Positions 17,091 to 21,485 of a stretch of DNA of 64,000 nt are shown here, piece by piece. Each line of letters starts with the position of its first letter. Position 1 is the first letter of the stretch. Source of the stretch: Escherichia coli (GTDB lineage Bacteria > Pseudomonadota > Gammaproteobacteria > Enterobacterales > Enterobacteriaceae); the NCBI RefSeq assembly GCF_050320075.1, contig NZ_CP190018.1; one strand, 5' to 3'. Below the pieces are notes generated by a model, which did no database searches, was not told the origin of the DNA, and saw nothing but the letters and a program-made list of their open reading frames with translations. The translations under genes were made by a program, and so were the position numbers.

Positions 17091-19424
17091 TCAGGCTGTT
17101 GCAGGGTCGTCACATTTTGGCAGCCAGTCGCCGTAGCTTTCCTCTTTCAGCGTCAGGTTGGTCTGTATCCCCTGTTTGGTATGGCGCTTCTCGTAATTCA
17201 GTCCGTATTCCTTCAGCATCACCGGCAGCCCCAGCCCGAACATTTTCAGACTGAGTACGTTCCGGTAGCCGTTTGCCTCCATGTAGGCCAGATAGGCGTG
17301 ATAGAGGTATTTACGGTAATTGCGCGGGATGATGCTGGCGTTCCCCATATACATGCCGCTGGTCTGCGGCAGGGTTTCCAGATAGCCGATAAAATCAAAC
17401 GTCGGGTCGGCATCCCGTTTGATGTTCAGCGCCTCGTCTGAGTTCTGCTGGGACTGAAGCAGTGACCGGGCGAGCATCGGGTCGCTGAACTTCTGCATCA
17501 GGTGACGCACGATGACCGCCAGCTCGCGGGTGATTTTGTCCTTAAGCTGCGGGTCGCGCTCCTGCGGGGCTATCTGTTCCGGGAAGTGAATAATCACCCG
17601 CCGGCGTGACACGCCGCCGCTGCGGTCGGTGAAGCGCATCGGGTTATTGTTCACGGCCAGAATTACCGCCGGGATATGCGTGGAGTATGCATCCCGGTAT
17701 TTCGGGTCAACGGACACCGCATCGCCGCCGGTGATGGCCTTGAGTCCGGCACCGTCGCCGCTCCATTTTTCCTGGTCCGGCAGGCGTATCAGTGAGAAGC
17801 CAGTTAACGCGGCACGTTCACGCGGGGATTCCAGCGTCTCGATGGTGGCCGACGTGGCGTTATCCTCACCGGCCAGCAGGGTGGCTATTTCGGCCATGAT
17901 ACTTTTGCCGCTGCCGCCGGGACCGGTCACCTCCAGAAAGAGCTGCCAGTCGTAGCGGTTTGCCAGCACCATAAACAGTGCGGCCAGAATCACGTCGCGT
18001 TTTTCCGCACGACCACCGGCGGCACGGTCAAGCCAGCGCCAGAACGCGGGGGCGTGGGTTTCCAGCGTTTCCCCTTCCACCGGCGGGGTGAAATCCACAT
18101 CGCACAGGGTGCGCATCCAGTGTGACGGACTGTGCGGGTGGAACGTGCCGCTCTGCGTGTCGAGCACGCCGTTACGAAAGCCAATCAGGCGGCGGGAGGG
18201 GGCTTCCTGCTGCGGAATAATCAGCTTCAGGGTGTCCACCACGGAGGCCACCTTCCCGGAGGAGAACGGCGCGCGCAGACGCTGAAACAGCCCGGCCACA
18301 TCCCGGGCAAAGTCCTGTGGTGGCAGCACCTTCCAGACACCATTTTCATAACGGGACAGAAGCTGGCCGTTGGCATCAACCGCGAGCGCCTCGCCGTAAT
18401 GCTCATAGATACGCATGGCCTTTTCGCTGGTACTCATGGCGGAAAACTCCGCTTCGCTCATGGTGTCGAACGGGCTTTCAGCCGGTGGCCGGATGGCATC
18501 ATAAATGGCCTTACGGGTGGCTTCCCCGCCGTACTGCGTGAAGGCATCATTCCAGTCACCGAAGACCGGCGGCAGGGCAACAACACCTTCACACGCATCT
18601 GCGGCTGCGGCGGCTTTTTTCTGGCCGTCACCGCTGAGGTCACGGTCAGCAGCAAGGACAATCTGACAGGCCGGATGCTTCTGCCGGGCAAGGCTGGCCA
18701 GAGAAAGGAGATTCACGGAAGAAAGCGCCACCATCACCGTTTCACCGGTCAGGTGATGCACGGTAAGTGCGGTCGCGTATCCCTCCGCTATCCACAGACG
18801 TTTTCCGGCCTGATTCTGTCCTTCAAGGGTGTGACAGGTGCCCCTGACCTGTCCGCCTTTCAGGGTGCGCTTACGGCCGTCAGCACTGATTAACTGAAGG
18901 TTAACCAGTTCGCCGCTGTCGTCATACAGTGGCACCACAAGGTCACCGGCGCGCCAGCTCACGCCACCGGCTCTGTGTGTGCCGGTCAGCATCCGGCATT
19001 CCCGGCCGGGAAAGCCCTTGCGGGTCAGGTAGGCGTTACCGGTTCCGGGACGGGTTTTCGCCATCAGGGTTTGTGCCAGTGCGGCGGCGTTCTTCCGGGC
19101 AGCGTCTGTTTCAGCACCGGCGGCGGTCGTCACTGCCGGGTCAGCCGGGGGCAGGCTGCCGGTCACGGCAGCCACCTTTGCGGCCGCGTCGGACGGGGAA
19201 ACACCAAACACCTTTTCAACCAGTTTCAGGCCGTCACCGGCACCACACTGATTGCAGTACCAGGTGCCGCGCCCCTCCCTGTCATCAAAACGGAAGCGGT
19301 CACTCCCGCCACAGACCGGACAGGGCTGATGACGGTTCTTCAGCACCTGAATCCCCAGCGCCGGGAGAATACGCGGCCAGTGGCCGAGCGCATGGCTGAC
19401 GGTGGCGGTTACGTTCATTTTCAT
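17091..19424 (-). CDS. P4 alpha-type bifunctional primase/helicase
   Basis: 777-aa ORF (same length as P4 alpha); N-terminal zinc-finger CPVCGGSDRFRFDD...WYCNQCGAGDG; strong AAGGAG SD 8 nt upstream. Confidence 0.9.
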   Translation of the reverse strand: MKMNVTATVSHALGHWPRILPALGIQVLKNRHQPCPVCGGSDRFRFDDREGRGTWYCNQCGAGDGLKLVEKVFGVSPSDAAAKVAAVTGSLPPADPAVTTAAGAETDAARKNAAALAQTLMAKTRPGTGNAYLTRKGFPGRECRMLTGTHRAGGVSWRAGDLVVPLYDDSGELVNLQLISADGRKRTLKGGQVRGTCHTLEGQNQAGKRLWIAEGYATALTVHHLTGETVMVALSSVNLLSLASLARQKHPACQIVLAADRDLSGDGQKKAAAAADACEGVVALPPVFGDWNDAFTQYGGEATRKAIYDAIRPPAESPFDTMSEAEFSAMSTSEKAMRIYEHYGEALAVDANGQLLSRYENGVWKVLPPQDFARDVAGLFQRLRAPFSSGKVASVVDTLKLIIPQQEAPSRRLIGFRNGVLDTQSGTFHPHSPSHWMRTLCDVDFTPPVEGETLETHAPAFWRWLDRAAGGRAEKRDVILAALFMVLANRYDWQLFLEVTGPGGSGKSIMAEIATLLAGEDNATSATIETLESPRERAALTGFSLIRLPDQEKWSGDGAGLKAITGGDAVSVDPKYRDAYSTHIPAVILAVNNNPMRFTDRSGGVSRRRVIIHFPEQIAPQERDPQLKDKITRELAVIVRHLMQKFSDPMLARSLLQSQQNSDEALNIKRDADPTFDFIGYLETLPQTSGMYMGNASIIPRNYRKYLYHAYLAYMEANGYRNVLSLKMFGLGLPVMLKEYGLNYEKRHTKQGIQTNLTLKEESYGDWLPKCDDPATA

Positions 19425-19438
19425 GGTGTTGTTCTCCT

Positions 19439-19759
19439 TCAGTGCAGTACCGGCGCTTTTATGTGACGGGCACAGAGTTCATCCATCACAACCAGCCCGA
19501 GAAAGGACAGCGACGGCGCGGCCTTCAGGGGGCCGGATTCCATTAAATCTTCCAGCAGGGCACAGGCTATCTGACGCCCTTTTTCCTCACCGTGCTGGCG
19601 CAGATAAAAGCCTTCCAGCTCAGCGGCGATGGCCGCCTCCAGTGATTCAAGGGTGAGATGCGGGTAGCGGTGCTGACGTTCGCACACGGTCAGCCAGGCA
19701 CAGGCGACAGCGCGACGGTAAAGGGCAGCGCGTAAGACGGGCGGTAAGGGTGTTTTCAT
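19439..19759 (-). CDS. hypothetical protein (P4 left-operon small ORF, 106 aa)
   Basis: ORF directly upstream of the primase in the same orientation; stop 14 nt before the primase ATG. Confidence 0.6.
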
Positions 19760-19894
19760 TTGCTTTCCTCCCTGTGACAGATGACTGCATTCCGTGCCGG
19801 TTGCATTAACTGATAAGGCATATCTGCGTCTCCTGAAGACGTGCGTATCCCTGCGCGAATACGCACATTTAATTTTTCGGGTGTCGTTTTTTAA

Positions 19895-20350
19895 TTACAG
19901 ATAATTGCGGTAACTGTTATCCGGGGTGATTTCCGGGTCAGACTCCGTGCGGGGAATTTCCCGCCATTCCCGCGCCACCGGTGCCGCCCGGCTGACCGGA
20001 ACAGGGGCCTGCGGGTAAATATCCAGATATTTCTCCCGCCATTTCTGTAATTCCGGGTCTCCGGCCATTTCTTTCAGTACCGCATGCCGGTTTACGGGGC
20101 TGCGTTTAAACAGGTCAGGACGGTCACAGGTAAATTCCCGCAGAAAACGCCCCAGCGGGATGTCTGTGGTGCGTCCGTCAGCGAGGATACGCACAAGGAT
20201 ACTGAATTTACGGCGGTACGGGTTCCAGACAATGTCCGGGCAGCGGTACGGCATTTCCCACGGAATACCGTCTTCCAGAATGCCGACCACGGCCACATCG
20301 GGAAAACCGGCAGAACGGTAAATCTCACCGGGCTGGGGAAAATCAAACAT
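19895..20350 (-). CDS. hypothetical protein, 151 aa (same size and position as P4 orf151)
   Basis: ATG overlaps the stop of the upstream ORF (ATGTTTGA), indicating translational coupling. Confidence 0.65.
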   Translation of the reverse strand: MFDFPQPGEIYRSAGFPDVAVVGILEDGIPWEMPYRCPDIVWNPYRRKFSILVRILADGRTTDIPLGRFLREFTCDRPDLFKRSPVNRHAVLKEMAGDPELQKWREKYLDIYPQAPVPVSRAAPVAREWREIPRTESDPEITPDNSYRNYL

Positions 20351-20630
20351 GCGTCCTGTCTCCCCGGTCTTTCTGCTGGGCGAGAAAATCGCGGCACAGG
20401 CCTTTGGCTTTCAGCTCATTCAGCACAAAATCAATATCTTCATTCAGGTAGCTGAAAATATGCGGAATGTAGAGCTGATGCAGGCCGGAGAGTTCACGGT
20501 GAATCAAATCACCCCCAACAAACTGGGATACGGCGCTGGCGCGGTTGAGCTTATGGTAAGCCTCAATGCTGAGGTGTTCACGGGCGTCATGACGCGCTGA
20601 GACGGTCTGAGGGGCTTTTTTATTACGCAC
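20343..20630 (-). CDS. hypothetical protein, 95 aa with GTG start (P4 epsilon-like position)
   Basis: GTG at 20628-20630 preceded by GGAGG with 6-nt spacer; the upstream ORF's TAA lies inside GTGCGTAA; ORF track shows a longer 190-aa frame that would overlap the upstream gene. Confidence 0.5.
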
Positions 20631-21222
20631 GGGACACCTCCACCACCGGCAGACGGGCAGCAAGGGAGAGCACATAGTCACGGACAAGGGAACGGCGGGC
20701 ACTGCGTTCATCACCGGCGACGGTGCGAAGCATACAGATACGGGGATGACGGTCTGCGCGACGGACAGCCGCAAACACAAAGACAAATTCAGGGTGTGAG
20801 GGGGTAAGGGTTGTAGCCATGATGGCAGCCTCCTGTGAATAGCAAATAACGCTATCGCCGGAGTTCTCACGCTCGATGGCGATAGCCCAGACGGGGGTGA
20901 GAATACCGGCTTCACAGGATACCGGCCAGCCCGGAGGCTGCCCCGCCTGAGCTACCATTGACTCTGCGGCATAATGAGCGGACGCGGGCAGGATGCACGG
21001 AATGCCATCTGCACGACTGACCACACACCACACCATAATCTGGCGCTCTGTGGCATTGATTGCGACACAAAAAAAGACGCGTGGCGCGTCATATGTCGCC
21101 TGTGAATTGCTCGGGTTCTCACGCCCGGCTGCCGATTTTGCGGCAGCGGAAAAACTATATCCGCAAATGCCGGAAAAAGGCAAGCCAGAAAAAGGGACTT
21201 TTTGCAGAGCGGGCATCATCAT
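20623..21222 (-). CDS. hypothetical protein (~199 aa)
   Basis: ORF-track ORF 20623..21267; proposed start at ATG 21220-21222, which overlaps the TGA of the vis/alpA-like gene (ATGA); alternative ATGs at 21219 and 21216. Confidence 0.45.
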
Positions 21223-21485
21223 GCGTCGTACCCCCGTTTGCGTCCGGCAATGCGCCCGGCCATCCATGCGGTGACTTCAGAGTGCAGCCAGGCCACATTT
21301 TTACCGCCAAGACTCACCTGCGGCGGAAATTCCCCTTTACGGATGAGTTCATAGATGGTCGAGCGTGACAGGCCGCACAGGTGCATCACTTCCGGCAGAC
21401 GTAAAAAACGCTCCTGCGTGATGTCCGGCAGCGGCATCAGTGGCGTCACAGGGGCGGGAGACGGGGAAGAAAAAACAGCTTGCAT
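21219..21485 (-). CDS. AlpA/Vis-family small DNA-binding regulator (excision/integration control)
   Basis: 88-aa ORF; HTH signature [48 protein letters not shown]; true start could be an internal Met. Confidence 0.75.

Follow-up and report, generated by a model that had tools for sequence, protein, structure and literature searches.

Which strand codes between positions 17,091 and 21,485 of the 64,000-nt stretch of Escherichia coli DNA analysed here (contig NZ_CP190018.1; the whole stretch is referred to as the window), and do the overlapping stop and start codons of its minus-strand genes serve a purpose? A sequence-only reading of the window had preferred a tightly coupled minus-strand operon to the plus-strand open reading frames (ORFs) that compete with it. 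Our analysis supports the minus-strand gene models and settles the strand question for the window: variable sites concentrate at third codon positions, ratios of non-synonymous to synonymous changes (dN/dS) are low, Pfam families match, and the annotations of satellite phage P4 and of RefSeq agree. Furthermore, we are highly confident that a P4-type satellite prophage has its left operon here, with the immunity and antitermination model of that phage included.

The P4-type left operon and its junctions

Alignment to the left operon of satellite phage P4 (X51522/NC_001609), the check that the sequence-only reading had proposed, gave 99.0% DNA identity over 2501 bases, collinear and without indels. 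The offset is constant (window position = P4 position + 12455), by which the region corresponds to P4 coordinates 4636-9030. All genes lie on the minus strand in the order vis, eta (with kil nested in it), epsilon, orf151, cnr and alpha (Table 1). The gene lengths (88, 199, 95, 151, 106 and 777 amino acids (aa)), all junctions, whose letters are identical, and the embedded RNA elements are the same as in P4, and each protein differs from its P4 counterpart by 0-6 residues. The P4 feature table has five of the six genes at matching coordinates; in place of eta, the GenBank record lists a 137-aa 'cI protein' that is the 3' part of the 199-aa frame, an obsolete call. A locus of 100% identity was found in E. 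coli strain Ec-U3, for which RefSeq (PGAP) gives the same six minus-strand coding sequences (CDSs) and names the 199-aa CDS 'host cell division inhibitor Icd-like protein'. Close copies of the stretch occur in 1116 of 5426 complete E. coli genomes, about a fifth. Work on P4 has described these genes, the overlaps and the eta-vis coupling since the 1990s, and existing annotation pipelines find the genes; as a discovery, the classical P4 left operon carries little weight.

Seven core components serve to define P4-like satellites (Moura de Sousa and Rocha, PMC8628076), and the element holds them: alpA/vis, epsilon, alpha, Delta (Ogr_Delta) and Psu have Pfam matches, sid lies within the P4-collinear block and is annotated in RefSeq without a Pfam match, and a CDS with an integrase domain is located at 27095-28282. 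In the RefSeq table of the identical locus, the P4-like order int, hotspot, psu-delta-sid, alpA...epsilon...cnr, alpha, att was found between ssrA and ypjA.

The three overlaps that the sequence-only reading had described were all present on the minus strand where it had placed them. The end of vis reads ...GCATGA, with the stop TGA at 21221-21219 and the eta ATG at 21222-21220 forming a 4-nt overlap, ATGA. The end of eta, ...CGTGCGTAA, places the stop TAA at 20625-20623 and the epsilon GTG at 20630-20628, which gives an 8-nt overlap (GTGCGTAA). Likewise, epsilon ends ...CATGTTTGA, with the stop TGA at 20345-20343 and the orf151 ATG at 20350-20348, again overlapping by 8 nt (ATGTTTGA). A small correction applies to the last junction, for which an AAGGAG 8 nt before the primase start had been reported: the motif is at 19439-19434, its first A shared with the cnr stop codon, and the spacer to the alpha ATG at 19424 is 9 nt (AACAACACC). 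This cnr-alpha junction was invariant in eight close loci, namely the window and P4 together with six E. coli loci that are 95-99% identical.

The 199-aa and 95-aa gene models start inside longer ORFs that a mechanical search delimits (214 and 190 aa), at positions chosen to fit the junctions. The same starts are annotated in P4 and RefSeq, and the 95-aa model is backed by the Pfam Derepression family, which matches over its full length. Four ORFs, each at least 88 aa long and chained through overlaps of 1-8 nt, arose in 0 of 2000 dinucleotide-preserving shuffles in which any start codon was allowed; the best shuffled chain had three ORFs and was seen 4 times in the 2000. A single ATGA junction is weak evidence when taken alone. 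The junctions carry weight because long ORFs open exactly at each of them and because they are conserved in relatives.

The description as a tight operon was right for the three overlaps, and had overlooked the 135-nt gap (19760-19894) before cnr. This gap is the only untranslated stretch of the operon and the only break in its coupling. It has 3 variable sites among the close relatives, is more conserved than the flanking genes and folds as a 12-bp hairpin without a U-run (z = -1.9). Upstream of it, orf151 has no Pfam match; in one relative (L008 772-1227; E. coli SC423) it contains an internal stop and is annotated as a pseudogene.

Promoter, immunity RNA and selection inside eta

The longest of the three overlapping minus-strand frames upstream of orf151 contains more than a protein. 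A scan of 19300-21900 gave a single promoter-like site, which lies inside eta, 7 nt before the isrK match beginning at 21147, and whose hexamers and spacing (TTGCCT, 18 nt, TATAGT) fit the P4 promoter PLE. Downstream of it, two stretches, seqA (about 21131-21099) and seqC (about 20875-20831), form direct repeats and are both complementary to two loops of the CI immunity RNA encoded between them. The Rfam C4 match of the latter spans model positions 1-87 of 87, with a gathering score of 45, and its targets are on the same transcript. Together with an adjacent CI-complementary stretch at 20833-20824, seqC covers the kil Shine-Dalgarno sequence. Thus, as in P4, an internal PLE-like promoter and a CI RNA with complementary seqA and seqC were all found inside eta. 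Across 11 aligned loci, seqA, the CI loops and seqC co-vary: TTCACAGG / CCTGTGAA / TTCACAGG (seqA/CI/seqC) in the window becomes TTATCGG / CCGATAA / TTATCGG in L007. Such a joint change is the expected signature of different immunity specificities. CI RNA, seqA and seqC have been described, and IsrK, whose Rfam model matches the leader here, has been characterised as a structural homolog of the P4 seqA RNA (PMC4825925).

Between seqA and cI, the isrK-like match has its 3' end in a GC-rich hairpin (GACGCGCCACGCGTC, followed by seven T; 21076-21090, minus strand), which resembles an intrinsic terminator within a translated ORF. The hairpin may be one of the immunity-dependent termination sites described for P4. 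The last 65 codons of the ORF, from the ATG at 20820, are P4 kil.

Upstream of vis, no sigma-70-like site was found in the same scan (19300-21900), as expected for an activator-dependent promoter. A candidate for the activator site of the late promoter PLL is the TGT-N12-ACA dyad at 21588-21605, about 400 nt upstream of PLE, which is where this site is expected from P4. In the whole window this motif has 15 matches, with 15.0 expected by chance, and only the position of the dyad is suggestive. Two further dyads of this form (21949-21966 and 21987-22004, plus strand) closely precede sid (22021/22039 onward), at the place expected for the Delta/Ogr-activated promoter Psid; their count, too, is that of chance in the window.

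How these elements may work together can be outlined from secondary summaries of the P4 work. Two promoters would read the operon, the constitutive PLE inside eta and the late PLL upstream of vis, which would be the first gene of the late transcript. Transcripts from PLE would carry an untranslated leader with seqA, CI RNA and seqC. Processed CI RNA would pair with seqA and seqC, and kil, with its ribosome-binding site covered by seqC, would remain untranslated; Rho would then terminate within kil and leave epsilon, cnr and alpha silent, which would amount to P4 immunity. On transcripts from PLL, ribosomes that end vis would restart on eta at the ATGA and pass through the immunity region and the Rho site, and translation of eta would allow transcription to continue into epsilon, orf151, cnr and alpha. 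The 8-nt overlaps of eta with epsilon and of epsilon with orf151 would leave no ribosome-free RNA for Rho to load. Read in this way, the ATGA junction would be the entry point of a known translation-dependent antitermination device.

Published P4 work provides the core of this scheme. According to the summary of Forti 1999 given in PMC10111431, the transcript of a constitutive promoter inside eta is soon terminated through CI/seqA RNA interactions and processed to CI RNA. The same summary presents Kil as a truncated Eta made upon occasional readthrough and full-length Eta as translated only from the upstream late promoter, its translation preventing termination so that the late transcript reads into the downstream genes. 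In the window, GC skew is +0.18 to +0.26 (plus strand) over 20680-20880, so that C exceeds G on the RNA strand in the 5' half of kil; this is weak evidence, yet consistent with a Rho site, timm, in this C-rich half. The eta frame, open in every locus aligned, agrees with such a site as well.

Several points weigh against this scheme. The putative position of the Rho site comes only from this modest C-over-G skew, the overlaps could reflect genome compaction instead of a need for coupling, orf151 lacks a family match and is a pseudogene in L008, and, as the 135-nt gap makes clear, the operon does not depend throughout on gap-free translation. The overlaps might be a by-product of packing a genome into a small capsid, each gene being translated independently and the overlaps having no regulatory role. 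This would agree with the Shine-Dalgarno-like sequence that every downstream start has of its own (GGAGG for epsilon, AGGA for orf151, GGGAGG for cnr, AAGGAG for alpha), with the operon's tolerance of the gap before cnr, and with the general experience that 1- and 4-nt overlaps are the commonest junctions in bacterial operons. However, compaction alone does not explain why the eta frame is kept open despite nearly unconstrained amino acids, and for the vis-eta junction, PMC10111431, citing Forti 1999, relates from nonsense and suppressor experiments that readthrough depends on the translation of eta. Overall, we consider compaction a possible but rather unlikely account of the overlaps.

The first 134 codons of eta vary more than any other part of the region (up to 0.57 variable sites per base), and the sites are spread evenly over codon positions 1/2/3 (42/41/40 in the close loci and about 41/43/44 in divergent pairs), with a dN/dS of about 0.7. 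In three of the 11 loci, only about 50% of the amino acids are identical over this part. Nevertheless, not one of the 11 loci interrupts the eta frame by a stop, whereas 1-8 stops occur in each of the five remaining frames of every locus. Length differences add up to multiples of three (9 nt, or 6+22+17 = 45 nt), and the start overlapping the vis stop is kept as ATGA, once as GTGA. The kil portion, unlike the first part of eta, has the substitution pattern of a normal constrained gene. In one locus (L012 1500-2099; strain B19), eta is annotated by RefSeq in two pieces, a partial 'ash family' pseudogene and a separate 65-aa Icd-like (kil) CDS, although the 555-nt eta frame has no stop in the alignment.

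Could the 199-aa ORF be no gene at all, and merely a chance open frame across a promoter and an RNA gene, fused in frame to the real gene kil, whose ATGA with vis is a coincidence? The missing third-position bias and the dN/dS of the first 134 codons would fit this, as would the most conserved peptide stretch of Eta, AGQPxGWPV, which is the translated stem of the CI RNA, and the former 'cI protein' call on a 137-aa part of the ORF, which was later dropped. A chance frame, however, would hardly remain open in all 11 loci when every other frame is interrupted, keep its net indels to multiples of three and retain its start overlap with vis; moreover, the published genetics summarised in PMC10111431 backs translation of eta. 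We therefore regard this explanation as very improbable.

The simplest reading of these patterns is that the first part of eta has been selected for a translatable frame over the protein that it encodes. More specifically, its 134 codons may be kept open only to be translated, as a ribosome shield against Rho, leaving the amino acids free to follow changes in seqA, CI and seqC. The flat codon-position pattern, the dN/dS of about 0.7 and the absence of stops from all 11 loci fit this proposal, and we consider the chances that it is correct about even. It sharpens an idea implicit in the 1999 P4 genetics, and an open first part of eta with a nearly unconstrained sequence is the only comparative point here that goes slightly beyond routine. 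The locus would illustrate an ORF selected for translatability, with a constrained kil, an unconstrained but always open first part and three co-changing RNA segments. The 199-aa gene model of the sequence-only reading was correct, but the ORF, which it had taken as an ordinary gene, should not be read as one: within it lie a promoter, an antisense immunity RNA, the two targets of this RNA, a nested toxic gene and, as we infer, a Rho site.

A consequence concerns the Pfam family Phage_ASH. Its match covers Eta residues 22-146 (window 20785-21159, minus strand), which is exactly the part with the PLE leader, seqA, CI RNA and seqC. The model matches Eta here and not epsilon, which differs from PMC8628076, where Ash is equated with epsilon. 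The open but unconstrained first part of eta suggests that the family may largely reflect the conservation of an RNA gene; if so, Phage_ASH and the 'ash' calls derived from it would be for the most part the translated footprint of the immunity RNA locus and not a folded domain.

Codon positions and the competing plus-strand frames

Close relatives (>95% identity) are too similar to reject most of the plus-strand ORFs by stop codons, and the decision required codon positions and more divergent loci. In the eight close loci, variable sites in the minus-strand frames numbered 13/6/51 at codon positions 1/2/3, a total that leaves out the first part of eta (values for the single genes in Table 1). 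Counted in the frames of the plus-strand ORFs, the same sites avoid position 3, with for example 0/5/1, 6/3/1 and 4/2/1. Comparison with three divergent P4-like loci of about 70-75% DNA identity gave dN/dS values of 0.10-0.21 for vis, 0.12-0.20 for kil and 0.06-0.09 for cnr. It is hardly credible that any of the plus-strand ORFs of 84, 123, 83, 93 or 102 aa is the true gene anywhere in the region, even though their frames are uninterrupted in the window and most of the close relatives: the variable sites shun their third codon positions, none of six plus-strand ORFs has a Pfam match even at E<0.1, three are disrupted in certain relatives (in L010 and L012, neither the start nor the frame of the 93-aa and 102-aa ORFs is preserved, and in L007 a stop interrupts the 123-aa ORF), and the annotation pipelines call none of them in P4 or RefSeq.

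Table 1. Genes, junction features and RNA elements of the region, with variable sites counted in the minus-strand frames of the eight close loci.
Feature	Position	Strand	Variable sites, codon positions 1/2/3	Description
TGT-N12-ACA dyad	21588..21605	-		candidate Delta/Ogr site, about 55 nt upstream of the predicted PLL start
vis (orf88)	21219..21485	-	4/0/12	88 aa, AlpA-family excisionase/regulator; Pfam Phage_AlpA 7e-21; 1 aa difference from P4 Vis
eta (orf199)	20623..21222	-		199 aa, starts ATGATGATG; Pfam Phage_ASH
PLE-like sigma-70 promoter	21154..21183	-		TTGCCT, 18 nt, TATAGT, inside eta
PLE transcript leader	21070..21160	-		holds seqA and the hairpin with U-run
c4-a1b1 Rfam match	21160-21108	-		c4 target model; 49.5 bits, gathering score 46.7
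isrK Rfam match	21147-21070	-		69.7 bits, full-length model, above gathering score
seqA	about 21131-21099	-		first CI RNA target, complementary to CI RNA
cI	20875..20962	-		CI immunity RNA (C4-type antisense); Rfam C4 (RF01695, clan CL00128), 74.9 bits
seqB loops	about 20919-20888	-		loops of CI RNA
seqC	20824..20875	-		second CI RNA target; runs into the kil Shine-Dalgarno CACAGGAGG
kil	20623..20820	-	0/0/8	last 65 codons of eta; own Shine-Dalgarno and ATG at 20820
epsilon	20343..20630	-	2/2/4	95 aa, GTG start, GGAGG 7 nt upstream; derepression protein against the helper phage repressor; Pfam Derepression 7.7e-51, residues 1-95/95; 1 aa difference from P4
orf151	19895..20350	-	4/4/10	151 aa; annotated in P4 and RefSeq
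gap orf151-cnr	19760..19894	-		135 nt, untranslated; ends with the cnr Shine-Dalgarno GGGAGG
cnr (orf106)	19439..19759	-	0/0/9	106 aa, copy-number regulator; Pfam DUF5375 2.9e-63; protein identical to P4
cnr-alpha junction	19425..19439	-		AAGGAG overlaps the cnr stop, then 9-nt spacer
alpha	17091..19424	-	3/0/8 (start of gene)	777 aa, primase-helicase and origin-binding protein, last gene of the operon; Pfam Zn_Ribbon_Prim, Toprim_3, D5_N, Pox_D5; 6 aa differences from P4 alpha

Relation to P4, divergent satellites and C4-type systems

Outside the left operon, the element departs from P4. Only P4 4471-11624 is represented, at window 16925-24080 and 98.6% identity, and the P4 attP core (4078-4097) is outside the matched part. 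The two copies of the 120-bp crr repeat of P4 both match a single stretch, 16925-17045. In place of the P4 genes int, cII, beta and gop, the element carries a different integrase (27095-28282) and a 908-aa P-loop nucleoside triphosphatase (NTPase), and it adjoins ssrA (transfer-messenger RNA, 28467-28829). The NTPase gene (24350-27076, minus strand) lies between psu/cos and the integrase, which is the known position of the defence hotspot in P4-like satellites. Searches for its family gave weak matches only, with AAA_16 and nSTAND1 below the Pfam cut-offs and PADLOC PDC-S27 at the P-loop alone; the gene may be an uncharacterised antiphage gene of the STAND type.

In three divergent E. coli P4-like satellites (L004, L005 and L006), the AlpA-family gene overlaps the eta/Icd-like gene by 4 nt, as in the window. 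Further overlaps of 1-4 nt lead to the DUF5375/cnr gene, which is separated from the primase by 13-14 nt that include GGAG. Their eta genes also hold a C4-type RNA with co-varying seqA and seqC, with differing immunity specificities. Unlike in the window, epsilon, orf151 and the 135-nt gap are absent, and one 73-75-aa gene is found instead. As the junctions stay tight even though epsilon and orf151 are replaced, tight packing is a property of the family and not of these particular genes. The 73-75-aa gene (L004 1832-2059, L005 1828-2049, L006 1829-2053) has no Pfam match, and BLASTP against epsilon was not significant (E = 0.29) even though a VxQFVG motif could be aligned. The gene probably belongs to a prevalent 75-aa family that PMC8628076 reports as absent from P4.

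A different relative is the IsrK/orf45/anrP locus of the Salmonella Gifsy-1 prophage; the Rfam isrK model matches the PLE leader of the window at full length. According to PMC4825925, the small RNA IsrK switches on the translation of a longer isoform of itself, and this activation scheme differs from the repression by CI RNA in P4.

The nearest system outside P4 is the immI operon of P1/P7 (c4 RNA, icd, ant). As in the P4-type operon, the leader is processed to yield a C4-family antisense RNA that controls the operon, and just downstream a small Icd-like cell-killing gene runs into the one after it; on a P1-like plasmid, this overlap, of an Icd-like CDS with a Rha-family gene, is 1 nt long. 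In contrast to the window, no long eta-type ORF runs through c4 in this plasmid, where only a 39-aa 'ash family' call is found (L013 1859-1978). Furthermore, no AlpA-family gene lies upstream to feed ribosomes into the immI region, and the gene downstream is an antirepressor instead of replication genes. In P1, c4 blocks the translation of icd, which leads to termination by Rho.

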